From Acidobacteriota bacterium (GTDB lineage Bacteria > Acidobacteriota > UBA6911 > RPQK01 > JAJDTT01), in contig CBDCJH010000002.1 of NCBI GenBank assembly GCA_965217775.1, forward strand, positions 3,456,001 through 3,520,000: a stretch of DNA of 64,000 nt, in the 5' to 3' direction. Shown one piece after another: positions 25,080 to 44,684 of the stretch. Each line of letters starts with the position of its first letter. Position 1 is the stretch's first letter. The position numbers and the translations under genes were made by a program. A model generated the notes under the pieces. That model was given only the letters and a program-made list of their open reading frames with translations. It did no database searches and was not told the origin of the DNA.

Positions 25080-25244
25080 CGGAATTCCTCCTCTAGTCCA
25101 TTTCTCGTCGGGAAATCCACAAGTTATTGAGAAATAAGGAATAAGAAGGTGTTTAAAAGTCCCGATTCTGGCCCAGTCATAGGTTAGGCTATTGGCGACA
25201 GATTAAAGACAACAAACGACTTGCACAAGACCGAGGGTTTGTCC

Positions 25245-26170
25245 TTGCGTCACAACCGAGAAAACCAACTTCCACTCACCAGCGCCTGTCCCGATCACCA
25301 ATTCGCCCGGAGCAGATAGCTGTTTGCCAGGTCCAGGAGGACACCCTATCGATCTCGGATCCGTTCTGCCACGATCTATGTGACAGCATCAGCTCCGACC
25401 ACGGGGCGCGGGATCTCTCGGCAGAGCAGGTGCTGCGCTCGGCCGTTCTCGAGAACTGGCATCAGCTACCCTACACTCCGTTGGCGTCCCACTTGAGCGA
25501 CTCCCAGAGTTTTCGTCGGTTCGCCCATTTGTCCTTGCGCTGGCCCCCTAATGCCTCCTGCCTGCCGGAGAACGTCTGCCGCTCCCAAGCCACCCCCCTG
25601 GCTGCAGATCCACGTGCTCCTGCTCCGCTGGGCCGCCCGCCAAAGTTTGGAACGGGGGCGCAAGCGTCGAACCGATGGCATCGCCGTGGAAAGCCCTATC
25701 CGATTTCCGCTGGATTCCCAGTTGCAGTCCGACGCGATACGAGTCCTCATCCGGAGGAGTCTCCGGCTTGATGTTGGACCGCGAGATCGTGCAGCGGAAC
25801 CCGGCCGATGCCTCTCAAGAGCAGCCCCCGCTGAGAGCGCCAGTTTGACGTTTACGGTCGCTGGACCCGACACGCCAGCTTCGATGGTCGCTTTGCCTGC
25901 CACGCCAATCTGCAGTGGACCAAGGAGCAGAGCATCCAAGATGTCTCCTCCGCCGAGAAAAACGGGCTGATGGTTCACGAGATGGTGCGCTGCAGTTGAG
26001 TCTATCGGCAACTGCGACGCTTCCGGGCCGGTATCGAAGGCTCCATCATGATGCTGAAGCGAGTCTTCGGCGTCGGACGCTACACCTGGAAGAGCTGGCC
26101 TCACTTTCAGCAGTATGCGTAGCTCACGGTCACGAGCTTCAACTTGCTGGTTCTCGCCCGCTTGGCGCTG
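25245..26170 (+). pseudogene. Degenerate ISNCY-type DDE transposase
   Basis: Fragments SAEQVLRSAVL...HLSDSQSFRRFAHL, NPADA, ASFDGRFA, VYRQLRRFRAGIEG...LKRVFG...FNLLVLARL, with frameshifts, stops and an internal deletion. Confidence 0.8.
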
Positions 26171-26456
26171 GGAGCGCGGCTTTGAATCCATTCCAAACGA
26201 GGACGGTCAGGGACCCGTATCTTACAGAATCAGCATCGGCTCCCAAAGGAGTTGATACTCCGGCTACCGGCCCCGGTCGGCCTTTTATTCTCGCACCTTC
26301 TACACCTTCCCTCACTCTATCCAACGCCAAGAACCCGACTCTCCGGGTGAGAACCAATTACAAATCATAGGAACGGGGGCCGCTACGGAAATCCCGGAGG
26401 GGGACTTCCAGGATACAGAGTAGCGGCGCCACGATGGAGTCTGGGAGGTGGCAGGT

Positions 26457-27797
26457 TTACCAGACAGACTCAGTGGAACGGCTGGCAATGTAGAGAGCTT
26501 CTTTGGTCAGGATATCCGTGACCCCGCCTCCCCAGTACGAGGGCTGCGTGTGCATCTTAGCGATACGGCATCGCCCCCACGGCGTTTCCCACCATTGGAA
26601 GTCCCATGTGCGGCTCCCTTTGTCTGCGCGATAGCTTTGCATCGTGCCATCCGGGGCTGCGCCTTTCTCACGAAGAAACTTTTGTACTCGATCGTAACAG
26701 CGTCCTCCGCCCATTTTGGAGGGGGGAGCTATGATTAATGCCGGGCGGCAGATTTCAATTGCTCGCCAGCAGTGTGTTTCCAAGTCCCAGAACTTGGTTC
26801 GTCGGACCGCTTCCGAGCGAGCGTGCTCCGTCGTAAGGTTAATCAAGCCCCAACAGGCAAAACGATCCTTTGAGCGGACACCCGGCAGGGAGACTTCGCT
26901 TAATCTGGCCCGCATGCCCTGCCACATTCCTCTCTTTTTCCGTTCGGAAAGAGGGTAATGGTGCTCGACATAGGATGGGAACTCTGCAAAGTGTCTTGAT
27001 GTTTTCCCAAGCCCTGGTGTCCAGTCGCAATGCTCTTCGGAGGGATCACCCTCCTCGCCTCCAGGACCGGGCAGTATCATCAGCCCCCACGCCGGAACAG
27101 CATAGGCGCAGTGAGGAAAAGACAGCTCTTCTTTGAGCCTTCTGTGGAGTCGGCTCTGGTCTCCATCTGACAACGAGGAGACGTGTTCACGAGTCTTGTC
27201 AAGGCGCTTACCAGGGTGCAGGTCAAAACATTCACTAGGGAGCAGGCTGTTCACTGTGCGTGCCTTTTTGATTCCCAGGGTTGATCCACTTGACCTCCAC
27301 CCGCAAGAATCAAGCTGCGGCGCAGTGACCGGAACGGCAGAGCCATCCACATTCTCCCGAGAATTCAGCAACGTGGTAGCGTTGTCCGAGGGTAGACGAT
27401 CCAGCCAATACGCACCCGCGTGATCGTAAAAGATCTGGTTCACTCCCGCCACAAACACTTCGGACTCGACTTCCGCCAGCCCAAGACACTTCAACTGCCA
27501 GTCATTCCCGGATTTGACAGTTCCCTTCCCCACAAGAAAGTGAAGATCTCCAACAATGTCCGCATCCTCCAGGAGATGCCAATTCGAAGCATCCAGAGGC
27601 TCTCCAAGCAGCTTGCACAGATTGAGGAAGGACCTCATCCGCATTGAGCGGGGATTCCTGCTGCGTTGAGAGCGAAAGAAACCCTTGGCGATTTCTCTCT
27701 CATCCTCGGTGAACTGAGTCTTCACCGGATTCCGAGATACGGGTTTCACATTCTGAGCACCGTAAGCCAATTCTCTCATCTTCGACAGTCCCAGCAT
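26457..27797 (-). CDS. Hypothetical protein, lower GC; C-terminal part weakly UDG-like
   Basis: 446-aa ORF with AAGGAG RBS; no confident family match by eye. Confidence 0.6.
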   Translation of the reverse strand: MLGLSKMRELAYGAQNVKPVSRNPVKTQFTEDEREIAKGFFRSQRSRNPRSMRMRSFLNLCKLLGEPLDASNWHLLEDADIVGDLHFLVGKGTVKSGNDWQLKCLGLAEVESEVFVAGVNQIFYDHAGAYWLDRLPSDNATTLLNSRENVDGSAVPVTAPQLDSCGWRSSGSTLGIKKARTVNSLLPSECFDLHPGKRLDKTREHVSSLSDGDQSRLHRRLKEELSFPHCAYAVPAWGLMILPGPGGEEGDPSEEHCDWTPGLGKTSRHFAEFPSYVEHHYPLSERKKRGMWQGMRARLSEVSLPGVRSKDRFACWGLINLTTEHARSEAVRRTKFWDLETHCWRAIEICRPALIIAPPSKMGGGRCYDRVQKFLREKGAAPDGTMQSYRADKGSRTWDFQWWETPWGRCRIAKMHTQPSYWGGGVTDILTKEALYIASRSTESVW

Positions 27798-27978
27798 CTG
27801 TTCTCTCCTTACTGTTTAGGAGACTATTATCCTGGCTACCACCTGGACAATAGCGAGGATACCGGCAACGGCGCCCACGATGCACCCACCGAGAAGCCAA
27901 AGATGATTTCGCTAACAGTATAGGGACCCACGCCAATCAGCCATTGGGTCCAGGCTGTTAGCGGAATTCAAACATGCT

Positions 27979-28015
27979 CCACCCCCTCCTGAGCGTCTCC
28001 CTGACCATCTTTCTC
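27979..28015 (+). repeat. Relic copy of a nuoN internal segment (20861-20897)
   Basis: 30-nt exact match CTCCTGAGCGTCTCCCTGACCATCTTTCTC, extending to 35/37 with two synonymous differences. Confidence 0.85.
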
Positions 28016-28043
28016 AAGGTTCGGGGGACGGGCAGTATGTCGC

Positions 28044-28467
28044 TCAAAGTCGTTCGATTCTTAGATTCTTGAATCGATCGAAATCCCGATCCTCGGTGAT
28101 CAGCCGAGAGATGCCCCCCTCGCGGCAAAGAGCTACGATCTGAGCATCGAATACAAGATTGCCAATCGCGTTTGACTCACGAAGCCCCTCCGAGAGGAGA
28201 ACGGGATACGCGGAACCGCGGCAAAGCACGACTAAGCTCGGTGAGGCTAGCACCCTTGCCAAGGCTTCACATGCATCTTCGGCCGCGTAGGGAGGTTCGA
28301 ATACTCTGGGGTGAGTGATGATACGGACAAATTCCCCGATACCGAAAACGGGGGTTCCCAGCGGGCAGGAGCCTCACCGAGGGCAACGGCGCGAGCGTGT
28401 GCAATGCGGTGTTAGGCCAGCCGTCGCGGTGCGCGTGGACGAGAACGTTGGTATCGATCACGATCAA
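28044..28467 (-). pseudogene. Frameshifted VapC (PIN) toxin
   Basis: MIVIDTNVLVHAHR in one frame and GNLVFDAQIVALC...LITEDRDFDRF in another. Confidence 0.85.
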
Positions 28468-28706
28468 CTCGGTCCATCCATCCGCTTGTAGAGGGAGACC
28501 CGATCATCCAAATCTATTCCCGGCACGGGCCGTCCTCCCTTGGTCAACAGGCGGGCACGGAAGGTGCGATCCGGAAGACGTGCGGGTTGGAGGCAATTGC
28601 GTAGTGCGCACTCAATCAGGTGGGTGAGCGTTACACCCTCTCTGGCGGCTCGTTGTTTTGCCGTGCGTATCAGCCGACCATCGAAGTTGATTGTCATCTT
28701 CTTCAT
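28464..28706 (-). CDS. VapB-type antitoxin
   Basis: TINFDGRLIRTAKQRAAREGVTLTHLIECALR...PGIDLDDRVSLY; overlaps the vapC start. Confidence 0.8.
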   Translation of the reverse strand: MKKMTINFDGRLIRTAKQRAAREGVTLTHLIECALRNCLQPARLPDRTFRARLLTKGGRPVPGIDLDDRVSLYKRMDGPS

Positions 28707-28843
28707 ACAGATATCTTAATCATTGGCATCAGGTTGCCGTCAATGATGGACTCGCTCCGCCGTGATGATCCGATAGGGGGAGGTGGTTTCACCGCATCCG
28801 TAGCTCCGCCGCCCTGCGGGACGGCGCACGAAGTCCGTCATTT

Positions 28844-30052
28844 TCAATGACCATTGACAGTTGACGATGCCTGCATCCTACCCCGGCGGCGGGCTCCAAA
28901 TCGTCGCTCCGATGTAGCGCTCGCGGCCGAGGCCTCGTCGGTGAAGTAGTAGACCGCGACCACCTTTCCGTCCGGTCTCTGGACGGCCCGGACGTAGCCG
29001 ATGTCGCGGCTGGCACCGTCGTCTCGGAGCGTGATGTGGTCGCCCCAAGTCCGGCCGCCGTCGCTGGTGAGCACCGCGCGAATGCTGTAGGGCTCGGCCC
29101 GGTAGCCGTAGAGCAGGCAGATACGTCCGTCCCGCAACTGGATCATGGCTGGCGGGTTTCCGATACCCGCGTCGGGAACTGCGTCATTGAGGTATTCCCA
29201 CGACAAGCCGTTGTCGGTGGACAAGTACGTGGCGATCCACCGTCGAGGCCCTTCGTGATCGCGGACCGTCACCAGGATGTCCGTGTCGCTGAGCCGCAGG
29301 GACGCGGGCATGATGGAAAAACCCTCCCCCTGTTCGGGGGCGATCCAGGAAAGGAACATCCAGGTCTTTCCGCCGTCGGTTGTGCGGACGCAGAGGGGGC
29401 GGCCCTCCAGTCCGTTCGGCTTTGCCGCCGTGATGAACAGGGTGCACGTTTCTTGGCCGTCGACGATGTAGTCGGTCCGCGGGGCGATTCCGGGAGTATC
29501 GAAGTTGGGCAGCCGGAAGGGGCCGTCCCAGGAACGCCCCCGGTCATTGGAGTAGAACACCCGGCCGATTCCGGCGTGAATGCTGTTGGTGCGGACCGTC
29601 AACGCGAAGTCGGGATGGGTGAAGTCGATGCCGCCCTCGCTCTCCCGCAAGGGAGGGATGGTCACGCCCGGCCGCGTGACTCCGTGCAGATACCCCCCCT
29701 CGGTGAGCAGGTACCCGTTGGCTCCCGGATCCTCCAGCGACCAGGTCTCACCGCCGTCCAGGCTCCTGGCCAGCATGGGAATCTCGGGTTTTTCGCGGTC
29801 GATGTGGTGGCTCAGACCCTGATCCTTGTAGTAGCCCATGCCGAATCCGACGAGAATCTCCTCACCCCAACTCCAGATCCCGTGGTTGGCCGGCCACCCG
29901 CCGAACATCCCCTTCTCGAAATAGACCTTGACGTGGCGAGGCTCGTCCGCCGGATCCGCACCCTCACTGCTCGATCCCGAGTCGTCGGGGACTGTGCAGG
30001 CAACGGCCCCGATCGCCAGGACGCCTGCTGCGGCAAAGTTTCTCCAAGTCAT
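28844..30052 (-). CDS. Sialidase-like BNR/Asp-box lipoprotein (C-terminal frameshift)
   Basis: Lipobox AVAC; Asp boxes SLDGGETW, SNDRGRSW, TTDGGKTW, STDNGLSW, TSDGGRTW. Confidence 0.85.
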   Translation of the reverse strand: MTWRNFAAAGVLAIGAVACTVPDDSGSSSEGADPADEPRHVKVYFEKGMFGGWPANHGIWSWGEEILVGFGMGYYKDQGLSHHIDREKPEIPMLARSLDGGETWSLEDPGANGYLLTEGGYLHGVTRPGVTIPPLRESEGGIDFTHPDFALTVRTNSIHAGIGRVFYSNDRGRSWDGPFRLPNFDTPGIAPRTDYIVDGQETCTLFITAAKPNGLEGRPLCVRTTDGGKTWMFLSWIAPEQGEGFSIMPASLRLSDTDILVTVRDHEGPRRWIATYLSTDNGLSWEYLNDAVPDAGIGNPPAMIQLRDGRICLLYGYRAEPYSIRAVLTSDGGRTWGDHITLRDDGASRDIGYVRAVQRPDGKVVAVYYFTDEASAASATSERRFGARRRGRMQASSTVNGH

Positions 30053-30262
30053 GGGATCCTCCATCTCTGCTTCACAATTCGCCCGAAGGCTATACCGGAA
30101 TACCCGCCGCCGAACATACGGATCGCGGTCCATGTTGACAAGGCGCGGCGGATTCCTGTGTTTGGGGCTGGCCTTAGAACATCCGGGATCAGAGCAGAGA
30201 AAAGGCCCTGATCAACGCTCCATACCCAAGCCCTGCAATCTGCTACATTCAACGGACCCGAC

Positions 30263-32377
30263 ATGAACCACAGCGAGATCACCAGCTTCATCTGGGGTGT
30301 GGCGGACCTGATCCGTGACACCTTCAAGCGCGGAAAGTACCAGGACGTGATCCTCCCGCTCACCGTGCTCCGCCGACTCGATTGCGTGCTGGCCCCTAAG
30401 AAAGCAAAGGTACTGGAGGTCCAGGCCAGGTACGCGGGCAGGATCGAAAACCCCGACGGGCTGCTTCAGGGCGCTTCCGGATTCGCCTTCTACAACACCT
30501 CCCGCTACGACTTCCCGAAGCTGCTCGCCGATGCGCCGCACATCGCTCAGAACCTGCGCAACTACATCGCCGGGTTCAGCCCCAACATGCGCGAGGTGCT
30601 GGAGAAGTTCGACTTCGACAACACCATCTCCAAGCTCGACGAGGGGGGCCTCCTCTTCCTGGTCATGCAGCGCTTCGGCAACCCCAAGAAGGTGAATCTC
30701 CACCCGGACGCCATCGACAACTTCACCATGGGCACGATCTTCGAGGAGCTCATCCGGAAGTTCAACGAGGCGCTGAACGAGAACCCCGGCGAGCACTTCA
30801 CCCCCCGCGACGTGGTCCATCTCATGGTGGACCTGATGCTGGCCGGTGACGGGGAAGAACTGCGCAGGAAGGGCGTTGCGCGGAGCGTCTACGACCCTTG
30901 CTGCGGCTCCGGCGGCATGCTCACCATCGCCAAGGAACACACGGTCCTCGGCGAGCTACGAGAGGGCAAGCGCCTGGGCGACCCCGTGAACCCGGACGCT
31001 GACATCCACCTTTTCGGCCAGGAGGTGAACCCGGAGACCTTCGCCATCTGCAAATCGGACCTCTTCATGAAGTCGAAAGACGGCCGCGACGCGAAGAGGG
31101 TCCTGTTCGGGAGCACGCTCTCGAACGACCGGCACTCCGGAACCGGCTTCGACTACATGATCGCCAATCCGCCCTACGGCAAGGACTGGAAGCGCGACCG
31201 GGACGCGGTTCGGACCGAGCACGACCGGGGCGCCGCCGGCCGTTTCGCACCGGGCCTGCCCCGGATCAGCGACGGCCAGCTCCTGTTCCTGCTGCACATG
31301 CTCGCGCACACGAAGGAGCCGGACCAGGGCGGATCGAGGGTGGCCATCATCATGAACGGCTCACCCCTCTTCACCGGCGATGCCGGCAGCGGCGAGAGCG
31401 AGATCCGGCGCTGGATCCTCGAAAACGACCTGCTCGAGGCGCTCATCGCACTGCCCGAGCAACTCTTCTACAACACCGGGATCGCCACCTACGTCTGGGT
31501 GCTGACGAACCGGAAGCGGCCCGAGCGGCGCGGCAAGGTCCAGCTCATCAACGCCACGTCGTTCTGGGTCCTGCTGCGAAAGAGCCTGGGCGCCAAGCGC
31601 CGCGAGGTCCCGTTCGACCGCAAGGAGGACATCCTGCGGCTACGGGAGGACTTCGAGGACGGTGCGACCCGCAAGGTGGACGATAACGGCGAGGAACGGG
31701 AGGTGGTCGTCAGCCGCATCTACCCCACCACCCACTTCGGCTTCCGCAAGATCACGGTCGAACGGCCGCTCCGGCTCGATTTCCAAGCCAGCCCCGAGCG
31801 GATCGCACGCCTCGACAACCAGCGCGCCTTCATCAACCTGGCCCGATCGCGCAAGCGGGGTGCGGCCAAGGCCAAGGACGAGGCGGCGGGCCGAGAGAAG
31901 CAAGCCGCGATCCGCGCCATCCTCCGTCGTCTGCCCGGCCGGCTCTTTCTGGATCGGGCAGTCTTCGAATCCGAACTCTCCCGTGCAACGCAAACTGCCG
32001 GGCTGAAACTCACCGCGCCTATCAAGAAAGCCGTGCTCTCCGCCGTGTCCGAGCGAAACGCCGAAGCCGAGGTCTGCCGGGACCGGAAGGGCCGTCCTGA
32101 GCCCGATCCAAAGCTCCGCGACACCGAGAACGTACCCCTCCTGGAGGATGTCGAGTCCTTCTTCGAGCGCGAGGTGAGGCCCCACGTTCCCGACGCCTGG
32201 ATCGATTCGAAGCGCCGGGACCCCCAGGACGGAAAGGTCGGGCTCGTGGGCTACGAGATCAACTTCAATCGCTACTTCTACGAATACCGGCCACCCCGTC
32301 CCTTGGAGGAGATCGAGGCCGACATCTGGCGGGTGGAGAAGGAGATCGCGGCGATGCTGCAAGAGATGCGCGTTTGA
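30263..32377 (+). CDS. hsdM: Type I R-M methyltransferase subunit
   Basis: GEHFTPRDVV, YDPCCGSGGML, NPPY, SDGQLLF, FYNTGIATY, GYEINFNRYFY. Confidence 0.96.
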   Translation: MNHSEITSFIWGVADLIRDTFKRGKYQDVILPLTVLRRLDCVLAPKKAKVLEVQARYAGRIENPDGLLQGASGFAFYNTSRYDFPKLLADAPHIAQNLRNYIAGFSPNMREVLEKFDFDNTISKLDEGGLLFLVMQRFGNPKKVNLHPDAIDNFTMGTIFEELIRKFNEALNENPGEHFTPRDVVHLMVDLMLAGDGEELRRKGVARSVYDPCCGSGGMLTIAKEHTVLGELREGKRLGDPVNPDADIHLFGQEVNPETFAICKSDLFMKSKDGRDAKRVLFGSTLSNDRHSGTGFDYMIANPPYGKDWKRDRDAVRTEHDRGAAGRFAPGLPRISDGQLLFLLHMLAHTKEPDQGGSRVAIIMNGSPLFTGDAGSGESEIRRWILENDLLEALIALPEQLFYNTGIATYVWVLTNRKRPERRGKVQLINATSFWVLLRKSLGAKRREVPFDRKEDILRLREDFEDGATRKVDDNGEEREVVVSRIYPTTHFGFRKITVERPLRLDFQASPERIARLDNQRAFINLARSRKRGAAKAKDEAAGREKQAAIRAILRRLPGRLFLDRAVFESELSRATQTAGLKLTAPIKKAVLSAVSERNAEAEVCRDRKGRPEPDPKLRDTENVPLLEDVESFFEREVRPHVPDAWIDSKRRDPQDGKVGLVGYEINFNRYFYEYRPPRPLEEIEADIWRVEKEIAAMLQEMRV

Positions 32378-32510
32378 CGCCGGCCTATCTGCGGCGGCTG
32401 CGGGTCAGGCAGACCGAGCGGAGACTGTCGCCGCTCCCCGTCAGTCTCCTTCATGCACTTCATGGCACTTGACACGCACTCGGCGCCACAAGTCTACCGT
32501 GTCTACCTTC

Positions 32511-32539
32511 TTGACACATACTTGGTGTGGCACTAACAT
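32511..32539 (+). promoter_or_regulatory. Sigma70 promoter of the CopG-VapC cassette
   Basis: TTGACA-N17-TAACAT, 8 nt before ATG 32548. Confidence 0.65.
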
Positions 32540-32547
32540 CACGGTCC

Positions 32548-32853
32548 ATGGGAGACTCGCGGCGAGTCCAAGTGACGCTCGATGCGAGAGCGTACGCGGC
32601 GGTGTCGCGGATTGCACGACGCGAAGGGATGAAGTTGGCCGCAGTCGTGCGGGAGGCCGTCGAGCAGTACTGCGTTCTGCCGGAGGCGCGGCAACGCCGA
32701 TTGGAGGCCATCGACAGGCTGTACGCGACGGGTGCGGTCCCAGCACCGGAATCGCTGCCGGAGTGGGAGCGCCAGTACAGCCGGCGGAAGGTCGGCCTGG
32801 CTACCGGTTGTCTCCACACCACCGAAGGTTCGGGGAGTCACGAGGACAGTTGA
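32548..32853 (+). CDS. CopG/RHH antitoxin
   Basis: RRVQVTLDARAYAAVSRIARREGMKLAAVVREAVE; overlaps the toxin start. Confidence 0.8.
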   Translation: MGDSRRVQVTLDARAYAAVSRIARREGMKLAAVVREAVEQYCVLPEARQRRLEAIDRLYATGAVPAPESLPEWERQYSRRKVGLATGCLHTTEGSGSHEDS

Positions 32854-33278
32854 CGAGCGTGCGTGACTCGCTGTTTGTGGACGCCAACGTGTTCATGTAC
32901 CTCGCGGGCAGTGACGCCCCGTACCGGGAGGCCTGCCGACGGGCTCTGCTGGCCGCGGCTGACAAGGGGGCCAAGCTGATTACCAGCACGGAAGTCCTGC
33001 AGGAGATCCTCCACTACCATGCCGCCCGACGGCGGCCCGATGACGCCCGAACCGTGTACCAGGCGGTGACAGACATCTGCGACGAGATCCTGCCGGTGAC
33101 GGAACACCAAACGGCCCGCGCGCTCGAACTGCTGGTGCGGCATCCCGGGTTGCCGGCGCGAGACGCCCTGCACGTCGCGACGATGGAGGCCCGCGGCGTG
33201 GAGCGGTTGCTGTCGGCAGACCGGCACTTCGATCAGATCGACACCGTCACGCGTGTCGACCCGCTCGCCCCCTCTTGA
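32850..33278 (+). CDS. VapC PIN-domain toxin
   Basis: FVDANVFMY, TSTEVLQEILH, ARDALHVATM, LSADRHFD. Confidence 0.9.
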   Translation: MTSVRDSLFVDANVFMYLAGSDAPYREACRRALLAAADKGAKLITSTEVLQEILHYHAARRRPDDARTVYQAVTDICDEILPVTEHQTARALELLVRHPGLPARDALHVATMEARGVERLLSADRHFDQIDTVTRVDPLAPS

Positions 33279-33279
33279 T

Positions 33280-33354
33280 CCTCCGTCTGCCCTGGACGAC
33301 GAACAGGCGGAGAATGAGACCGTGGTCATACTGCAGGACACGACGGCGAGTTGA
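33280..33354 (+). pseudogene. Relic hsdM 3' end
   Basis: Translates as PPSALDDEQAENETVVILQDTTAS*, versus HsdM end PPRPLEEIEADIWRVEKEIAAMLQEMRV*; 28/39 nt identity in the distal part. Confidence 0.6.
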
Positions 33355-33528
33355 TCTCCAGGCGCGAGCGCCTCGGGCACGCGAGATTCGAGCCAAGCGA
33401 TTAGAGTCAGCCTGAACCTGCAGATCTTCGACCGCCACGGATCTCCCGCTTGGGTCGCGCCGGTGCAGGGTGCGTTGCCACCAGACCTGTTCTTGGACTA
33501 CATTATGGTCATCGACAGGAGGTAGACC

Positions 33529-33804
33529 ATGTTCCTGTCAGACCGGATCAAGCCGATCAGTTACCTGAAGGCCCACGCATCCGAGGTGATCCGCACGCTC
33601 AAGGACCGGCAGGGCCCTCTGATCGTCACCCAGAACGGCGAAGCCAAGGCGGTCGTGCAAGACATCGACAGCTACGAGCGGATGCAGGAGAGCATCGCCC
33701 TGCTCAAGATGCTTGCGCTTGGCAACCGTCAGATTGAAGCGGGTCAGGTGCAGTCGGCCGCGCGGGTCATGGCGCGGATTCGGGAACGGCAACAGGCCGA
33801 TTGA
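33529..33804 (+). CDS. Phd/YefM antitoxin
   Basis: IKPISYLKAHASEVI, PLIVTQNGEAKAVVQD; AGGAGG RBS. Confidence 0.92.
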   Translation: MFLSDRIKPISYLKAHASEVIRTLKDRQGPLIVTQNGEAKAVVQDIDSYERMQESIALLKMLALGNRQIEAGQVQSAARVMARIRERQQAD

Positions 33805-34130
33805 TGCCGTTCGTGGTGCAGTTGACCGATGACGCCGCAGACGACTTGGAAGAGATAGTCGACTACTTCTCCCGTCAGGATGCGCCGAGGAGAGTGGAAC
33901 CTGTTCTCGAACGCATCGAGCAGGCCTTCCGAACGCTGTCCGCGTTCCCCGAACATGGCAGCTACCCGAGGGAGTTGTCGAACCTCGGAGTTCGGGAGTA
34001 CCGCCAACTGCTCTTCAAGCCATACCGGATGATCTACCGGGTGATTGACGACACCGTTTACGTGCTGGTCAACGCAGACGGGCGACGTGACATGCGGGGG
34101 TTGCTGGAACGGCGCCTGCTGGACGCTTAG
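33804..34130 (+). CDS. RelE/ParE toxin
   Basis: VQLTDDAADDLEEI, LSAFPEHG, YRQLLFKPYRMIYRV, DGRRDM. Confidence 0.9.
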   Translation: MPFVVQLTDDAADDLEEIVDYFSRQDAPRRVEPVLERIEQAFRTLSAFPEHGSYPRELSNLGVREYRQLLFKPYRMIYRVIDDTVYVLVNADGRRDMRGLLERRLLDA

Positions 34131-34326
34131 CCCGAATTTCTCACCAAGTCGCTGAGTATATGAAGAAAACCCTCTTTTATTCATATACCTGCAGTTATTT
34201 CGTGACAGCATCCCAGGCACAGACTGCGCTGGGTACTCCCTCGATAGTTTTTCCGCCGTTTGCTGGCGCCTCGCTGAAGGGGATGGCGGGGTGACGGCTT
34301 CGACGGCCTGATCGAAGCAAGAACAA

Positions 34327-34358
34327 AATGTCGGCATTTGTATTTATGTGCCGACATT
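34327..34358. promoter_or_regulatory. AbiEi operator inverted repeat 1
   Basis: Perfect AATGTCGGCA-N12-TGCCGACATT immediately upstream of -10 TACTAT. Confidence 0.75.
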
Positions 34359-34373
34359 CTTTACTATGCGTCC

Positions 34374-34976
34374 ATGGCTGAACTCACTGCGGCCGCGCTC
34401 GAAGCAGCCGGCATTGGAGCGTTTTTCCGGCCGCGAGATATTGAGACGCTCGGTGTCCCGTACCGTCGCCTCCGCGGACTCGTTGCGGCCGGCGCCGTGG
34501 AGAACCTCGGCGGCGGCCTTTATCGGCTGGCCGAGATTGAGCCGACCGAGCTGGAAACGGTCGCCATGGTGGCCGCTGCCGTCCCGCACGCCATCGTCTG
34601 CCTGATGACCGCGCTCCGCGTTTACGAAATCGGAACCGAATCCCCTCACGAAGTCTGGATCGCCATTAACCGCAAGGCGCGCCGCCCTGCCCGAGTGCCG
34701 GCGCAGATTCGCGTCGTCTGGTTCTCGAAGGCGATGCTCACCTACGGAGTTGTGCGCCGCCCGATGCTCGGCGTGCCGGTTGCCATCACATCGCCGGCCC
34801 GGACGGTCGTCGACTGCTTTCGGTACCGCAACAAACTCGGCCTCGACACCGCGCTGGAGGCGCTCCGGGACGTGCTGCGCCAACGGCTCGCCACCGTGGA
34901 TGAGATCATGCGCGCAGCCAGCGTCTGCCGGGCGCGCACGGTCCTGCAGCCCTACATGGAAGCAGTTCTGTCGTGA
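34374..34976 (+). CDS. Type IV TA antitoxin AbiEi (copy 1)
   Basis: wHTH with GLYRL; AIVCLMTAL, PHEVWIAI, TSPARTVVDCFRYRNKLG. Confidence 0.9.
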   Translation: MAELTAAALEAAGIGAFFRPRDIETLGVPYRRLRGLVAAGAVENLGGGLYRLAEIEPTELETVAMVAAAVPHAIVCLMTALRVYEIGTESPHEVWIAINRKARRPARVPAQIRVVWFSKAMLTYGVVRRPMLGVPVAITSPARTVVDCFRYRNKLGLDTALEALRDVLRQRLATVDEIMRAASVCRARTVLQPYMEAVLS

Positions 34977-35110
34977 CGAGACGCCATCTCAAGAACGTCG
35001 CGGCGTCCGTCCGCGACCGGCTGCTCGCTCGCAGTCGCGAGACCGGTGAGGAGGCCGAGGCTAACATCCTGGAGAAGGAAATTGTGGCCCTGTTTTCCGA
35101 GATAACCGGC
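34973..35110 (+). pseudogene. Truncated AbiEii 5' end fused to a relic hsdM 3' end
   Basis: KNVAASVRDRLLARSRETG (AbiEii N-terminus) joined at ~35048 to EEAEANILEKEIVALFSEITG (HsdM-like C-terminus). Confidence 0.75.
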
Positions 35111-35121
35111 CAACGACTGAT

Positions 35122-35153
35122 AATGTCGTCAAATATTAATGGTTGCCAACATT
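35122..35153. promoter_or_regulatory. AbiEi operator inverted repeat 2
   Basis: AATGTCGTCA-N12-TGCCAACATT, same architecture as repeat 1. Confidence 0.65.
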
Positions 35154-35189
35154 TTGACCTAGACGGCTCACACAGGTTATGTTCATGGC

Positions 35190-35846
35190 ATGCATGAAGC
35201 GAAAGGCAACCAACTGCACACATCTGCCGGCATTTCAGTACGATATTCCGCGACAGGCAACTCTAGCCTGCAGCGGCTCGGCTCCAAAACATTCTTCCGT
35301 TCGCGCGACGCGGCCGCTCTGGGCGTCCACTCACGTGCGCTACGGCGCCTGGTGGATGACGGTTCGATCGAGCGAGTGGCGCGCGGGCTCTACCGCCTCG
35401 CCCACGTGGAACCGACAGAGCACTACACTCGAGCCGCCGTCTGCGCCCGGGTCCCAAGCGCCGTTGTCTGCCTGCTGACGGCCCTGAGCGTCTACGAGAT
35501 CGGCACGCAGCTCCCACACGAGGTCTGGATCGCCATTCCGCACAAGGCCCGCACGCCCCGCCTGCCCGGGCTGCCGGTCCGGGTGGTGCGATTCTCCGGG
35601 GTCAGGCTGCGCTACGGCGTCGTGAACACGACCTTCGAGGGGGTCCCCGTTCGTATCACGAGCCCGGCCCGCACCGTGGTGGACTGCTTCCGCTTCCGGC
35701 GGCTGGTCGGCAAGGACGTCGCGATCGAGGCGCTACGCGACGCCCTGCGCGACCGCAAGGCGAGCGTCGACCAGATCTGGCGGGCCGCCGAGGTGTGCCG
35801 CGCAAAGTCGCTCGTCGGGCCGGCACTCGATGTGCTGACAGCATGA
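35190..35846 (+). CDS. Type IV TA antitoxin AbiEi (copy 2)
   Basis: ERVARGLYRL, AVVCLLTAL, PHEVWIAI, TSPARTVVDCFRFR. Confidence 0.9.
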   Translation: MHEAKGNQLHTSAGISVRYSATGNSSLQRLGSKTFFRSRDAAALGVHSRALRRLVDDGSIERVARGLYRLAHVEPTEHYTRAAVCARVPSAVVCLLTALSVYEIGTQLPHEVWIAIPHKARTPRLPGLPVRVVRFSGVRLRYGVVNTTFEGVPVRITSPARTVVDCFRFRRLVGKDVAIEALRDALRDRKASVDQIWRAAEVCRAKSLVGPALDVLTA

Positions 35847-36814
35847 CTCCTCGAAAGGCGATCCGGGACATACCCGCATCCATCCGGCAGCGCTTGCTGA
35901 ACCTCGCCCGCCGGCAAGTGACCGATTTCGAGCGCGTGCTCCAACGCTACGCGGTCGAGCGTTTCCTCTACCGCCTCTCCGCCTCGGACGAGGTGGACCG
36001 CTTCACGCTGAAGGGAGCCGCGCTTCTCCGCGTGTGGACCGGACAGGAACTGCGCCCCACGCGGGATATCGACTTCCTGGCCCGCGGCGCCCGAGATGAA
36101 GCCGCCATTCGCACCGCCCTGCGGGCCGTCTGCCGCATTTCCTGTCGAGAGGACGGCGTCGTCTTCGACCCGGCCACGATCTCAATCACGAGCATCCGCA
36201 TCGATCAGCCGGACGGCGGCTGCCGGGCGCGGATCCGGGGCAGCCTTGGGCGGATCCGGCTCGCGGTCCCGGTCGACATCGGCTTCGGCGATGTCGTCAC
36301 CCTGGGCCGCAGGGAGGAGAACTACCCCACACTGCTCGACCTGCCCGCTCCCCGACTCTGGACATACCCGCGCGAGACGCTGGTCGCCGAGAAGTTCCAC
36401 GCGATGGCCAGTCTGGGTGACAGGAACTCGCGCGTGAAGGACCTCTGGGACATCGCCTGCCTCGCGCGCCGCTTCAGGTTCGACGGCGACATTCTGCGCA
36501 CCGCCATCGCGGAGACGTTCCGCCACCGCGGGACGCCGTTCACGGGCGGACGGCCGACGGCGCTGCTGGCCGGCTACTACAGCGACCACGAGGCCCCCGG
36601 GCGCGGGCAACGCTGGCGCGAGATGCGACGGCAGATCGGGACCGACATCGATGGGCCGGATCGCCTCGTGGACGTCGGCGAGGAGCTGCGCCGTTTCCTG
36701 GGACCGCTCTGCGACAGCCTGATCGCGGAGAGCCCGTTCACCCAGGCCTGGCCCGCTGGTGGACCGTGGCGGCCGGGGATTCGGGCACGGACGGGAGGCG
36801 GGGGCGGTGACTGA
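35843..36814 (+). CDS. Type IV TA toxin AbiEii (nucleotidyltransferase)
   Basis: ASIRQRLLN, FTLKGAALL, RPTRDIDF, VDIGFGD, ETLVAEKFHAM, NSRVKDLWDI. Confidence 0.92.
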   Translation: MTPRKAIRDIPASIRQRLLNLARRQVTDFERVLQRYAVERFLYRLSASDEVDRFTLKGAALLRVWTGQELRPTRDIDFLARGARDEAAIRTALRAVCRISCREDGVVFDPATISITSIRIDQPDGGCRARIRGSLGRIRLAVPVDIGFGDVVTLGRREENYPTLLDLPAPRLWTYPRETLVAEKFHAMASLGDRNSRVKDLWDIACLARRFRFDGDILRTAIAETFRHRGTPFTGGRPTALLAGYYSDHEAPGRGQRWREMRRQIGTDIDGPDRLVDVGEELRRFLGPLCDSLIAESPFTQAWPAGGPWRPGIRARTGGGGGD

Positions 36815-38207
36815 GGCGACCGACCGCGTGACCGAAGGAAATGATCGGATCGACGAACTTCAACGACGGCCCTTTCCTTCCTACTCGAAGTACAGGGACT
36901 CCGGCGTCGAGTGGCTAGGCGAGATTCCGGCACATTGGAACCCAAAGCCATTTAAGGCGTCTCTGGTTCGCAATGACAGCGGTGTTTGGGGTGAGGACTT
37001 CGATGACGACGGAACCATCGTCTTGCGGTCTACCGACCAAACCAAGCGGGGCAGGTGGAGGATTACAGAACCAGCTCGAAGGCGACTCAGCGCTCGCGAA
37101 GCGACCTACGCCAAGCTTTTGTGGGGAGATCTGCTCGTCACGAAGTCGAGTGGAAGCGTACACCATATCGGGAAGACATCCGTTGTCGATGAGGCAATTG
37201 CAGCCCTGAACTGCTGCTACTCCAACTTCATGCAGCGCCTGAGGGTTTCGACCGAACACGTTCCCCGGTTCTTCTGGTATTTCATGAACTGTCCACCTGC
37301 GCGCGAGCAGCTTATTTTCCTCTCATCGACCACAACCGGGCTCGGGAATCTGAACGGCTCTATTATCGGAGCCATTCGCATACCGATGGCACCGGCAGAA
37401 GAGCAGCGCCTAATTGCCGAATTCCTCGACCGCGAGACGGCGAAGATTGATGCGCTGGTGGCGGGGAAGGAGCGGCTGATCGAGTTGCTTCAGGAGAAAC
37501 GCATCGCCCTCATCACGGTTGCCGTCACCCGGGGTCTCGATCCGAACATCCCCATGAAGGACTCCGGCGTCGAGTGGCTGGGCGCGATCCCGACACACTG
37601 GAAGCTTGAGCCGCTCAAACGCCTTCTAAGCCGAAGTGACTATGGAATATCGGAGAGCTTGAAAGTAGGAGGTGATATCCGAGTTCTAACTATGGCGCAC
37701 ATTCAAGATGGCGAGGTTGTATTGCCCCGTGATGGCAGCATCAATGAAATCGACCGGTCAATGATGCTTGAGTCCGGCGACCTTCTGTTCAACAGAACCA
37801 ACAGCCGTGAACTCGTAGGTAAGGTCGGTATATTTCGTGGCGACCACGATGATTGCGTGACCTTTGCATCGTACCTTGTAAGGTTAACCCCGCGTCAGCA
37901 CGTCGAACCCGAATGGCTTAACTACCTGCTCAACTCCACTGGCGTTCTTGGAATGGCGCGAAGCACGGCATTACTTAGTGTTAACCAAGCCAATCTCAAT
38001 CCAACCAAGCACCAGCAATTCATCATGCCTGTGCCCGCACCTTCTGAACAGCGGACCATCGCAGGTTTCCTACGCGCTGAGACCGCGAAGATCGATTCCC
38101 ACATCGTCAAGATCCGGCAGGCAATTAACTACCTCCACGAATTTCGCACCGCTCTTATCTCCGCGGCGGTCACCGGCAAGATCGACGTCCGGGAGGGAGC
38201 GCGATGA
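36807..38207 (+). CDS. hsdS: Type I R-M specificity subunit
   Basis: Two repeats of DSGVEWLG.IP.HW and EQR.IA.FL..ETAKID flank two lower-GC TRDs; ends ALISAAVTGKIDVR. Confidence 0.95.
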   Translation: MTEATDRVTEGNDRIDELQRRPFPSYSKYRDSGVEWLGEIPAHWNPKPFKASLVRNDSGVWGEDFDDDGTIVLRSTDQTKRGRWRITEPARRRLSAREATYAKLLWGDLLVTKSSGSVHHIGKTSVVDEAIAALNCCYSNFMQRLRVSTEHVPRFFWYFMNCPPAREQLIFLSSTTTGLGNLNGSIIGAIRIPMAPAEEQRLIAEFLDRETAKIDALVAGKERLIELLQEKRIALITVAVTRGLDPNIPMKDSGVEWLGAIPTHWKLEPLKRLLSRSDYGISESLKVGGDIRVLTMAHIQDGEVVLPRDGSINEIDRSMMLESGDLLFNRTNSRELVGKVGIFRGDHDDCVTFASYLVRLTPRQHVEPEWLNYLLNSTGVLGMARSTALLSVNQANLNPTKHQQFIMPVPAPSEQRTIAGFLRAETAKIDSHIVKIRQAINYLHEFRTALISAAVTGKIDVREGAR

Positions 38208-41200
38208 GCCCGGAAATTTCTGAGCGAGCTTTCGAAGAGGCTATCGAGTGCGCGCTGCTCCGGCACGGGCCAGACGCGTGCCCCGGCGATAGGACGACGG
38301 TGCGGGAATCGCCGCCGAGATACGGCGCCGAGCCGTTGCCGGGCGGCTACCACAGACGGCGTGCAGAGGACTACGACCGCGGGCTCTGCCTAATTCGGGC
38401 CGACGTTCTCGACTTCCTCCTGGCCACGCAGCCGAAAGAGTGGGCGAAGCTAAAGCAGCACCACGGCGCTGACGTGAAGCCGCGTTTCCTCAGCCGACTC
38501 TCCCGCGAGATCGCCCGTCGGGGAGCGCTCGACGTGCTGCGCAACGGCGTTAAGGACTCGGGCTGCAAGTTCCGGCTCGCTTACTTCCGGCCAGCAAGCG
38601 GTCTCAACGAGGAATTGCAGCGCCTGCACGGCGCCAACCTCTTCGCGGTCGTCCGCCAGCTCCGCTTCAGCGCGAAGAACCAACAGAGCGTCGATCTCGC
38701 GCTCTTCCTCAACGGCATTCCCATCTTCACGGCCGAGCTCAAGAACCCGCTCAACGGGCAGGACGTGGAGGACGCCATTCGCCAGTACAAGCACGACCGG
38801 GATCCGCGCGAGCCCCTCTTCGCGTACGGACGCTGCCTCGCCCACTTCGCCGTGGACCCGGAACAGGTGTTCGTGACCACGCAACTCATGGGGCCCAAGA
38901 CCCGGTTCCTGCCCTTCAACCAGGGGCGTTTCGGCGGCGCGGGAAACCCGCCGGTCCCGCCCACCCGTTCCGGCTTCCCCACCGCCTACCTGTGGGAGCG
39001 GATCTGGGCCCGCGACAGCGTCCTCGATCTCGTCCGCCAGTTCATCCACGAAGTCGAAGTGGAGGACGATCGCGGGCGCAGAACGGGAAAGCGTTTCCTG
39101 ATCTTCCCGCGCTACCAGCAACTCGACTGCGTCCGCCGTCTCGTGCGCCACGCGCGGAACCACGGCGCCGGCGAACGCTACCTGATCCAGCATTCGGCCG
39201 GCAGCGGTAAGAGCTTCACCATCGCCTGGCTCGCCCATCGGCTCTCGGTGCTGCATGACCACGAGGACCGGCGCGTCTTCGACTCGGTGGTGGTGGTGAC
39301 CGACCGGCGCGTGCTCGACCGCCAGCTCCAGCGGACCATCCGGCAGTTCGAGCAGACCCTGGGCGTGGTGGAGAACATCGATCAGACCTCCCGACAGCTC
39401 CGCCAGGCGCTGGAGGCGGGCCGGACCATCATCGTCACCACCTTGCAGAAGTTTCCGGTCATCGCCGAGGAGATCGGGCAGCTTCCCGGCAAGCGGTTCG
39501 CCGTGATCGTGGACGAGGCGCACTCGTCGCAGTCGGGAGAGAGCTCCAGGAGCCTCAAGGCGGTCCTCGCCGCGGGAAGCCTGGAGGAGGCCGAGCACAC
39601 GGAAGCAGGCGCCGAAACCCCCGAAGAGGAACTCGAAGAGCGCGTCCTGGAAGAGATCCGCCTCCGCGGGCGGCTGCCGAACCTCTCGACGTTCGCCTTC
39701 ACGGCGACTCCGAAGCCCAAGACCCTCGAGCTTTTCGGCCGGAAGCAGCCGGACGGGAAGTTCACACCCTTCCACCTCTACAGCATGCGCCAGGCGATCG
39801 AGGAGGGATTCATTCTCGACGTGCTCCGGAACTACACCACCTACAAGGCCTACTGGCGCCTGCTGAAGAAGATCGAGGACGACCCGCGGTTCGACAAGCG
39901 GAAGGCGGAACACCTCCTCAAGACCTTCGTCGAACTGCACCCCCACGCTATCCGCGAGAAGATCGCCATCTGCGTGGAGCATTTCGCCGCTCAGGCCGCG
40001 GGCGAGATCGGCGGGCGGGCCAAGGCCATGATCGTGACCCGCTCGCGTCTGCACACGGTGCGCACCAGGCTTGCCCTGGATCGCTACCTGCAGGAAAAGG
40101 GCCACCCGTGGAAGGCGCTCGTCGCGTTCTCGGGAACGGTGAAGGACCGCGGGAAGTCCTACACGGAGTCCGGCATGAACTCGGCCGGACAGGAGCGGGT
40201 GATCGGCGAGCGGCAGACGGCCGCCGAGTTCGAGAAGCCCGAGTACCGCTTCCTGGTGGTCGCCAACAAGTTCCAGACCGGCTTCGATCAGCCGCTGCTC
40301 CACACCATGTACGTGGACAAGAAACTGGGCGGCGTGAACGCGGTCCAGACGCTGTCCCGCCTGAACCGCACGCACGCCGGCAAGCGGGGAACGATGGTGC
40401 TCGACTTCGCCAACGAAGCCGAGGAGATCAAGAAGGCCTTCGAGCCTTACTACGAGACCACCCTCCTCTCGGAGGGGACCGATCCCAACCTCCTCTACGA
40501 GGTTCAGGGCAGGCTGCTCGACTTCGGCGTGTTCGGCGAGGACGACGTCGAGAACTTCGCGCGAGCGTTTTTCGATCCGAAGGCGGGCCAGGACAAACTC
40601 TACGCGGCGCTGGAACCGGCGCGGCAACGCTTCACCGAGCTTGCGCCGGACGAGGGACGCGAATTCCGCAGCCAGCTCACCGACTACGCGCGCCTCTACG
40701 CTTTCCTCTCCCAGGTGCTTACGTTCGCCGACACCGACCTGGAGAAACTCTACGTCTTCGCCCGGCATCTCCGCCGCCTGCTGTCGATGGGCCGGGAGGC
40801 GCTGCCCCTCGAGATCCGGGAGAGCATCGACATGGAGTCCTTCCGCATCCAACGGACGAGCCGCGGCCGGATCGCCCTCGAACGGCAGGTGCGGCCGCTG
40901 GATCCCGTAGGCAGCAAGACTCGCCGCGGTCCCGGCGGTGACGAGTTGGAGGCCCTCTCGCGAATCATCGAGGCCTTGAACGATCGCTTCGGCTTGAACC
41001 TGGGCGACGAGCACCGGATCACGCTGGAACAGATCCGATCCGCCCTCGACCGGGACGCGGGCCTCGACGCCAGCGCCCGGGTGAACACCCGCGAGAACGT
41101 GCGGCTGACCTTCGATCCCAAAGTCGAGGACAAGATCCAGGAAATCGTCGACACCAACTTCGATCTCTACAGGCGGATCACCGACGACCCCGACTTCGGC

Positions 41201-41740
41201 CAGGCGCTCAAGAACTTCCTCTTCGACGACTACATCACGCGGCACCAGCGAGCGGAGGAACTGCTCAAACACCAGGAGTCGAAGACGCTGGAGTTCAAGT
41301 CGAGCCTGCGCTGGAACCTGAAGGAGGATCGCAAGGACGTCAAGCAGGTCACCCATGCGGCGCTCAAGACCGTCGCCGCCTTCCTCAACACCGAGGGCGG
41401 CGACCTCCTGATCGGCGTGGACGACGACCGCAAGGTGCTGGGCATCGCCCACGACCGTCTGGAGACCGACGACAAGTTCATGCTGCACCTGGCCCAGGTG
41501 GTGCGAAACGGCCTCGGCGACCGGGCCGGCACCTGCATCGATCCCAAGACCCAGATCGTGGAGGGGAAGACCGTCTGCCTCGTGAGCTGCCAGCGAAGTC
41601 CCGAGCCGGTCTACCTGCGGTGGAAGGGACTGGAAAAGGCAAAGGAGGGCGATCTCTACGTCCGGAGCGGCCCCGGCACGGTTCGACTCGGCAAGAAGGA
41701 TGCCGAGAAGTACGTGGCCACCCGGTTCGCCTCGAATTGA
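38204..41740 (+). CDS. hsdR: Type I R-M restriction subunit with C-terminal Schlafen/AlbA_2 domain
   Basis: D..LFLNGIP...ELKN nuclease motif, HSAGSGKS, DEAH, FTATP, QTGFDQP, QTLSRLNR; then ESKTLEFKSS...VAAFLNTEGGDLLIGVDDD. Confidence 0.95.
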   Translation: MSPEISERAFEEAIECALLRHGPDACPGDRTTVRESPPRYGAEPLPGGYHRRRAEDYDRGLCLIRADVLDFLLATQPKEWAKLKQHHGADVKPRFLSRLSREIARRGALDVLRNGVKDSGCKFRLAYFRPASGLNEELQRLHGANLFAVVRQLRFSAKNQQSVDLALFLNGIPIFTAELKNPLNGQDVEDAIRQYKHDRDPREPLFAYGRCLAHFAVDPEQVFVTTQLMGPKTRFLPFNQGRFGGAGNPPVPPTRSGFPTAYLWERIWARDSVLDLVRQFIHEVEVEDDRGRRTGKRFLIFPRYQQLDCVRRLVRHARNHGAGERYLIQHSAGSGKSFTIAWLAHRLSVLHDHEDRRVFDSVVVVTDRRVLDRQLQRTIRQFEQTLGVVENIDQTSRQLRQALEAGRTIIVTTLQKFPVIAEEIGQLPGKRFAVIVDEAHSSQSGESSRSLKAVLAAGSLEEAEHTEAGAETPEEELEERVLEEIRLRGRLPNLSTFAFTATPKPKTLELFGRKQPDGKFTPFHLYSMRQAIEEGFILDVLRNYTTYKAYWRLLKKIEDDPRFDKRKAEHLLKTFVELHPHAIREKIAICVEHFAAQAAGEIGGRAKAMIVTRSRLHTVRTRLALDRYLQEKGHPWKALVAFSGTVKDRGKSYTESGMNSAGQERVIGERQTAAEFEKPEYRFLVVANKFQTGFDQPLLHTMYVDKKLGGVNAVQTLSRLNRTHAGKRGTMVLDFANEAEEIKKAFEPYYETTLLSEGTDPNLLYEVQGRLLDFGVFGEDDVENFARAFFDPKAGQDKLYAALEPARQRFTELAPDEGREFRSQLTDYARLYAFLSQVLTFADTDLEKLYVFARHLRRLLSMGREALPLEIRESIDMESFRIQRTSRGRIALERQVRPLDPVGSKTRRGPGGDELEALSRIIEALNDRFGLNLGDEHRITLEQIRSALDRDAGLDASARVNTRENVRLTFDPKVEDKIQEIVDTNFDLYRRITDDPDFGQALKNFLFDDYITRHQRAEELLKHQESKTLEFKSSLRWNLKEDRKDVKQVTHAALKTVAAFLNTEGGDLLIGVDDDRKVLGIAHDRLETDDKFMLHLAQVVRNGLGDRAGTCIDPKTQIVEGKTVCLVSCQRSPEPVYLRWKGLEKAKEGDLYVRSGPGTVRLGKKDAEKYVATRFASN

Positions 41741-41989
41741 GACCCGCCCGACTGACCTTGCCCCTTGGGCCGCATTTCCCACTGGGGGGCGCGATCCCCG
41801 GACTCCTGTCGGCCAGGGCGAGCCGACCCTCCCGACCCAGGCAACCGCCGGCCCCAGAACGTATCCTCGGGCAGGCAACGACATTGCCGGACCGGACGCG
41901 CCGGAATGGCCCGGGCACGGCCAGAAGGAGTGGATGCAAACTCGATGACCGCCACCACCCAGGACGGGCCTGCCAGAGCAAAGGACAGT

Positions 41990-42055
41990 TGTGGAACGCC
42001 TGTCGGAATGCTGTTGACAGGGTGTGGGCCGCCTGTTGGAAAGCTGTGAATCAGG
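41990..42055. promoter_or_regulatory. Six 11-bp-phased DnaA-box-like repeats
   Basis: TGT starts at 41990, 42001, 42012, 42023, 42034 and 42045; units loosely resemble TGTGGATAA plus 2 nt. Confidence 0.55.
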
Positions 42056-42138
42056 GTTCCGTCAACTCAATCGTTTCCGAATTCCAGGCCGACTCGACCG
42101 TCCCGCCACTAACAGGGCAAGTCGTGTAGAATGCAACG

Positions 42139-44475: not shown

Positions 44476-44684
44476 CGGGCGCCGGAGAGGCTCCCCGTGA
44501 CCTTCGACGGCCTTCGAACCTCATGCGTCCGCTCCGGAAACCGACACTGAAGATTCGGATTCAGGGCGCCGAATCGTAACGGCTTCCGAAAAAGCCAAGC
44601 CAATTCGGAAGACACTCCGAAATAGTTCGACTGCGCAGGCCACTCCACGGAGGTCATTCCCCCAGGTGGAACTCCGGCATATTT

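Follow-up and report, generated by a model that had tools for sequence, protein, structure and literature searches.

In integrons, the gene for the tyrosine recombinase IntI lies beside the array, palindromic attC sites close the cassettes, crossover occurs at a fixed point and addition is polar. Arrays that grow in other ways have been described for the effector-immunity modules of the Vibrio cholerae type VI secretion system (T6SS), for which homology-facilitated illegitimate recombination (HFIR) was proposed and in which old effectors are lost but old immunity genes and gene ends are kept (Kirchberger 2017, PMC5361080); that account already draws the comparison with integrons. Joins made by HFIR typically show 3-10 bp of microhomology and a coupled insertion and deletion (PMC3240628). 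How chromosomal defence hotspots gain genes without mobile elements is poorly understood, and homologous recombination has been suggested (PMC12829572; further hotspot context in PMC12707154). Here we describe a type I restriction-modification (R-M) operon of an Acidobacteriota bacterium in which four toxin-antitoxin (TA) modules lie between hsdM and hsdS, with remnants of the hsdM 3' end among them. The operon was analyzed within a stretch of 64,000 nucleotides (contig CBDCJH010000002.1, positions 3,456,001 to 3,520,000), hereafter the window. It has a conserved anchor gene, joins at variable microhomologies, and a lost toxin whose antitoxin was kept; we read it as a variant of the known displacement arrays, placed inside an R-M operon, and it is not an integron.

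The operon runs on the forward strand and encodes the methyltransferase HsdM (30263..32377, 704 aa; Pfam N6_Mtase and HsdM_N, PADLOC MTase_I E 3e-264), the specificity subunit HsdS (36807..38207; PADLOC Specificity_I E 1e-107, Pfam Methylase_S) and HsdR (38204..41740; Pfam), all three as open frames, as in a type I R-M system. Pfam and PADLOC agree with an earlier note on this DNA, made from the sequence alone, that four TA modules occupy the hsdM-hsdS gap; labels such as VapC and CopG follow Pfam or general usage. Module 1 pairs a ribbon-helix-helix (CopG-like) antitoxin (32548..32853; Pfam RHH_1 E 2e-4) with a PIN/VapC toxin (32850..33278; Pfam PIN E 3e-17), and module 2 a Phd/YefM antitoxin (33529..33804; Pfam E 9e-16) with a toxin of the ParE/RelE family (33804..34130; Pfam ParE_toxin E 2e-15). 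Module 3 consists of the antitoxin gene abiEi_a (34374..34976; PADLOC AbiEi E 2e-62, Pfam AbiEi_4), now an orphan, and a stub of about 26 codons of its toxin gene, abiEii_a (34973..35052). Module 4 is intact, with abiEi_b (35190..35846, start codon uncertain; PADLOC AbiEi E 2e-69, Pfam AbiEi_4) followed by abiEii_b (35843..36814; Pfam AbiEii E 2e-41, PADLOC AbiEii). Every toxin in the array has a cognate antitoxin gene. The two abiEi copies fall into separate clades and share 67-75% DNA identity, so they do not stem from a recent duplication.

Degenerate copies of the final ~70 nt of hsdM lie ahead of module 2 (relic 1, 33295..33354, with its stop codon kept) and ahead of module 4 (relic 2, 35048..35113, with its stop lost and in frame with the 26-codon AbiEii stub). 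Our comparisons support the view that these are hsdM 3' ends which were carried along with the cassette downstream of them. The relatives used throughout are the 74 best-matching loci, out of 541 stretches that matched, in one GTDB scan; most are metagenome-assembled genomes of Acidobacteriota, with Pseudomonadota, Spirochaetota and others. Including the window there are 75 loci, of which 69 show the hsdM end and 67 show hsdS as well; genes in the relatives were called with a crude composition-based caller, which missed some. Amino-acid identity of hsdM across the loci is 65-93%, and hsdR and the hsdS repeats are conserved.

A profile of the 69 hsdM 3' ends, searched with nhmmer against both strands of the 64 kb, returned relic 2 (35047-35109, E 2.3e-6) and relic 1 (33303-33346, E 0.0048) as its top two non-self matches; built without sequence weighting, the profile was too sharp and lost power. 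With the window's own clade left out (63 ends), the two scored 22.9 and 11.7 bits, respectively. None of 500 dinucleotide shuffles of the interval reached 10 bits, and on a stop-anchored matrix the two relics scored about 32 bits (32.0 and 31.7), with none of 2,044,818 control positions at 30 bits or above. A repeat search independently placed 32334, 33308 and 35070 in one family (71%). The earlier note had quoted a peptide for each relic, both of which are present in the window, but had begun relic 1 at 33280; its alignment is reliable only from about 33295. The search that it proposed, with the HsdM C-terminus against the interval, depends on the query: a single peptide or DNA sequence from the window's hsdM, used ungapped, did not lift the relics above background (relic 2 ranked fourth and relic 1 was unlisted), and profiles were thus needed to separate them.

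Further comparisons address each relic individually. Relic 1 is identical to the hsdM end of L024 at 44/60 positions, and in L045 the same Phd-ParE module lies directly behind a genuine hsdM stop. The alignment of relic 2 and the following 250 nt with L048 is collinear and runs through the stop, from the genuine hsdM end of that locus into its abiEi (67%, E 2e-18), and the 8 nt between relic 2 and the abiE operator recur in 12 of the 27 loci with abiEi first after hsdM, the class of loci from which the operator model was seeded. A third relic is probable ahead of module 3, at 34264..34294. Its match is weak, at 22.0 bits on the stop-anchored matrix (2 of 2.04 million control positions reach at least 21.5 bits), and 25/31 positions are identical to the hsdM end of L070; we consider it less certain because the 3' ends of abiEi genes score similarly, at 16-23 bits. 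The last 20-30 nt of abiEi look like an hsdM end, for example at L019:14505, L028:13948 and L048:12844. This mimicry, together with the failure of the single-sequence scan, is what might suggest that the relics match hsdM by chance, as G+C-rich gene ends can. We give that explanation almost no credence: the control positions, the shuffles and the collinearity with L048 refute it for relics 1 and 2, and it could apply only to the third.

The join at relic 2 can be read to the base. It is a microhomology of 5 nt (35048-35052) that lies within abiEii_a and is shared with the hsdM tail; the continuation of abiEii_a past this point survives in L005 and L046, which have the full gene, and in L064, which has a longer piece. 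The stub ends at other codons in L016, L017/L026, L050 and L057. Across the loci, relics measure about 30, 34, 37, 40, 60, 66 and 225 nt, and their starts differ between events, so that there is no fixed crossover. In L001, L002 and L016, which do not have module 2, relic 1 is joined to the third relic out of register; the relics were therefore not matched recombination sites there, and in-register recombination between relics is rejected for the single case seen. On the reading that we favour below, the relics are scars that take no active part and would not serve again for attachment.

The earlier note saw neither an integrase nor attC sites, and both observations hold. Of the 48 window genes called outside the operon, 45 were scanned and none belongs to an integrase family (the other three encode 51-65 aa), and no recombinase occurs among the 39 recurring gene families of the loci, a scan outside which singleton flank genes fall. 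A general repeat search, which used no dedicated attC model, found no attC-like repeats at the module boundaries, only the hsdM tail and the abiE operators. There is no tRNA in the window and no Rfam match in 25000-45000, hence no tRNA-type attachment site. The one mobile-element gene that the window was found to contain encodes an IS605-type TnpB (Cas12f-like; 7571-8746). One could nevertheless imagine that a site-specific recombinase from another part of the genome uses the hsdM tail as its attachment site, as integrases use tRNA 3' ends, and three young relics do start within about 10 nt of one another (model positions 84, 90 and 94). Elsewhere, however, the relic begins at model position 52 or some 225 nt ahead of the stop, the gene next to relic 2 is truncated by it, and the deletion between relics is out of register; with no recombinase in the scanned window genes or recurring families, we regard this explanation as very improbable.

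Across the 67 loci that show both genes, the hsdM-hsdS gap ranges from -27 to 7320 nt (median 1970). Pieces of abiE occur in 62 of the 67 gaps, and an abiEii end lies at most 130 nt from hsdS in 54 of the 67 loci, even where the remaining abiE is gone; the base layout of the lineage is therefore hsdM-abiEi-abiEii-hsdS. A full abiEii toxin is present in 40 of these gaps, abiEi without a full toxin in 16, and two abiEi genes in 10. In distant plasmid relatives (six viewed, of 771 records matched) hsdM abuts the gene in the hsdS position in 6/6, without cargo, and in one of them this gene is annotated as hypothetical. The cargo-bearing gap thus looks restricted to the lineage.

Seven loci occupy one chromosomal site (the window, L001, L002, L005, L006, L016 and L046) and allow the order of arrival to be considered. 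Module 1 is present in all seven; it is partial only in L046, whose hsdM is broken, and is invariant in the six with an intact hsdM end. The part of the array against hsdS exists in three states: intact abiEii_a (L005 and L046), relic 2 with abiE_b (the window, L001, L002 and L006), and a different abiE (L016). These states cut across the trees of the flanking genes, which points to lateral exchange. Compared with L006, the window differs at 95/387 fourfold sites of the core, 26/125 of module 1 and 29/323 of module 4 (p=0.001), and the comparison of L002 with L006 agrees (p=0.004); module 4 is the least diverged in two of three pairs. In the tree, module 4 is nested among copies from Vicinamibacterales. 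The halves of hsdS are also shuffled within the clade, the first being common to the window and L001 and the second to the window and L005; the window shares neither with L002, L006 or L016.

These patterns bear on the proposal of the earlier note that cargo accumulates as in an integron, each cassette entering at the hsdM 3' end, duplicating that end and pushing older cassettes towards hsdS. Several observations suit such a polar array, namely a relic or probable relic at all three internal boundaries of the window, cargo between hsdM and a relic in L004, L012, L053 and L069, and, in L045, a Phd-ParE module that follows hsdM immediately, and it may fit some events. The expectation that the newest cassette stands next to hsdM is not supported, however, since module 1 stays the same throughout the clade, while it is the hsdS-proximal module that turns over and, in two of three pairs, is least diverged. 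Nor does relic divergence rise with distance from hsdM, identities to the nearest real hsdM end being 73%, 81% and 69% in order, without a gradient. A clear relic (at least 15 bits) stands at only 5 of 40 internal abiEi copies, a count in which the operator finder put some copies, those of L019 and L022 for example, in the wrong place; that of L069 reaches 14.8 bits. Most gains thus show no hsdM relic, which goes part of the way to the outcome that the earlier note named as fatal to its proposal, gain of cassettes without duplication of the hsdM end, although erosion could hide old relics in the other 35. The ends of the other hsd genes scar alike as well, and we consider polar growth improbable as a general account.

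Scars of the other hsd genes, and of hsdM in other lineages, are found in the relatives. At a threshold of at least 10 bits, the gaps between hsdM and hsdS contain six hsdM relics in 156 kb vs. one in 609 kb of upstream DNA; these six, all from the clade of the window, go back to two events. Independent hsdM relics were recovered by junction searches in L004, L012/L019/L022, L053, L069, L018 and L026, including one of about 225 nt in L004 that is 90% identical to that locus's own hsdM. An hsdS 5' relic stands ahead of a kinase cassette in L048 and L024, an hsdS 3' relic is found with the start of fic in L018, L021 and L026, and an hsdR 5' relic occurs in L053, L057, L048 and L026. Anchoring of recombination in the hsdM 3' end in particular, which had been inferred from the window, is not supported: relic starts vary, and both ends of hsdS and the 5' end of hsdR leave relics too.

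To account for these scars, we lean towards one-sided recombination, in which an incoming hsd allele would be joined through homology on one side and through microhomology on the opposite side, the array being eroded and its alleles exchanged in the ordinary way later on. Related operons with other cargo would arrive as linear DNA; one end would be joined by homologous recombination, presumably RecA-dependent, in a conserved hsd gene, and the other by a microhomology of a few bases wherever it landed, as in HFIR. Where the join falls just within an hsd gene, a short end of that gene would stay with the neighbouring cassette, as is seen for ends of hsdM, hsdS and hsdR. In the latest event in the window, a block comprising the hsdM tail, abiE_b and hsdS most likely entered from the hsdS side, and the same event would have cut the resident abiEii_a after 26 codons, its antitoxin gene abiEi_a being kept. 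Short deletions would afterwards erode the array, and double-crossover exchange would spread blocks between lineages and swap hsdS target domains. The retention of antitoxins after toxin loss was probably selected, because losing the antitoxin first would be harmful.

The main alternative is that a second complete hsd operon integrates alongside the first, by a single crossover of a circle or by unequal exchange, and that microhomology deletions then leave gene ends behind. This route would leave the same scars, and deletions have been common in the clade. It explains relics outside the hsdM-hsdS gap, of which L026 has one upstream of hsdM and L018 one downstream of hsdR; it also explains the pieces from within hsdM that lie upstream in L025 and L057 and the long, 90% identical relic of L004. 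No complete tandem operon of the family was found, however, in the 75 loci with 10 kb flanks; two steps are required per relic, and the long repeats of a tandem would favour clean excision. We consider this a real possibility, though a less probable one.

Several observations weigh against one-sided capture as we propose it. The outside relics of L018 and L026 and the upstream fragments of L025 and L057 are explained just as well by tandem operons with later deletion. Between the window and L002, modules 1 and 4 do not differ in divergence (16/130 vs. 32/324, p=0.5); in the comparison with L006, module 2 likewise shows little divergence from the window (5/62 fourfold sites). The approximately unbiased (AU) test does not establish the nesting of module 4 among Vicinamibacterales (p 0.083), a group that was named after the tree had been seen. 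A direction of entry can be suggested for the event that brought relic 2 and module 4 and not for relic 1 or the third relic, no event has been observed directly, and HFIR is described as rare in experiments (PMC3240628).

Three of the four modules are preceded by a sigma-70-like site in a promoter scan. Putative promoters, identified by consensus, lie upstream of module 1 (32511..32539, 10/12 match), module 2 (33475..33504, 9/12 match) and module 4 (35154-35183). AbiEi is reported to bind inverted repeats in its promoter (Dy 2014, PMC3985639). A similar inverted repeat precedes both abiEi genes in the repeat search and operator scan: one at 34327..34358 (no strand assigned) ahead of abiEi_a and one at 35122-35156 ahead of abiEi_b, the latter forming with the module 4 promoter the region 35122..35183. 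Both are putative AbiEi operators, and with the abiEi-abiEii bicistron they give the layout of an AbiE type IV TA system. We rejected the idea that the hsdM tail owes its retention to an abiE promoter within it, since the promoter-like site is found on the downstream side of the operator.

The stop of abiEii overlaps the start of hsdS (36807-36814), and the abiE promoter may drive transcription of hsdS and hsdR. A broader proposal, which we offer tentatively and hold to be rather unlikely, is that the hsd operon is a selected, recombinase-free capture platform, whose conserved genes attract the operons of relatives across phyla, that couples new hsdS specificity with new defence cargo and places hsdS and hsdR under AbiEi autorepression. 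If so, abortive infection and restriction would be switched together through the abiE-hsdS overlap, and the hsdM-hsdS and hsdS-hsdR gaps could be mined for new anti-phage genes whose order of arrival can be read.

Other cargo in the hsdM-hsdS gaps includes Ppl-like, type IIG, E1/E2, kinase, Mrr, PDC-S06-like and unannotated genes, as well as Schlafen and insertion sequence (IS) genes, and the hsdS-hsdR gaps carry Fic, HicAB and VapBC. Since they carry the first seven of these classes and Fic, the hsd gaps are candidates for defence-gene discovery, any defence function being so far predicted from gene content. In L010 (12592-17444), ThiF/E1 and Prok-E2/multi-ubiquitin genes lie with unannotated genes within the gap, and could possibly form a ubiquitin-like defence module. 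In L061, abiEi and abiEii are separated, at the hsdM-like end of abiEi, by an AAA_13/PDC-S06-like gene that an IS has split. A short gene resembling a Phd C-terminus is found just upstream of hsdM in L004, L007, L008, L009, L014, L019, L030 and L044, often accompanied by small TA-like genes. In the window's HsdR, residues 1025-1161 form a C-terminal SLFN_AlbA_2 domain. Elsewhere in the window, the segment 25130-28800, between a type III polyketide synthase gene and a BNR gene, is absent from most relatives of the clade; it contains an unannotated 446-aa open reading frame (26457-27797) with no Pfam or PADLOC match and with Atlas matches all under 0.9, and a DUF6364 antitoxin gene and a PIN gene in pieces (28044-28706), similar DNA to which is found in L016.

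With respect to known systems, what is new here is the setting in an R-M operon and the unusual legibility of the joins across lineages, the mechanism having precedents in T6SS and Rhs arrays. No title or abstract in the literature covered describes hsd gene-end relics bounding cargo (most subscription journals, and supplements, lie outside that coverage). Homologous recombination alone replaces genes and does not add them; the hsd joins, readable at the base level in many lineages, would be natural footprints of an additive, one-sided recombination.

A close parallel is provided by the effector-immunity arrays of V. cholerae T6SS. There too no integrase is involved, a new module displaces the toxin, the protective gene stays and remnants are left, and whole arrays then spread by ordinary homologous recombination (PMC5361080). 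Those arrays are anchored in the upstream T6SS genes and grow in a polar manner, whereas here hsdM, hsdS and hsdR serve as anchors and turnover occurs beside hsdS; in addition, the hsd cargo consists of self-contained TA or defence operons with promoter-like sites of their own. Displaced, orphan modules that keep a piece of the conserved gene are also known from C-terminal displacement in Rhs and contact-dependent inhibition (CDI) systems (via PMC5361080), where, as described, Rhs relics are long enough to recombine back onto the core gene; the hsd scars are of 30-70 nt, and the cargo is not part of HsdM. One-sided homology, 3-10 bp of microhomology and coupled insertion and deletion are shared with HFIR, which was established experimentally in other species (PMC3240628), unlike the sequence-based case made for the hsd lineage.

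Toxin genes within or tightly linked to type I hsd genes recall PrrC/EcoPrrI and Ronin (10.1101/2023.04.06.535777). Those back-up toxins are described as being checked by the Hsd complex, from which anti-restriction proteins release them, in contrast to the standard TA pairs predicted here from their genes, which have their own antitoxins. The abiE modules share with the AbiE type IV TA system the bicistronic order and the upstream inverted repeats (PMC3985639), and differ from the AbiE of that report in being fixed between hsdM and hsdS throughout the lineage, in overlapping the start of hsdS and in operator sequence. With integrons, finally, the hsd operon shares an array of small modules that include TA pairs; it differs from them in having no integrase, no attC family, no fixed crossover and no strict polarity.

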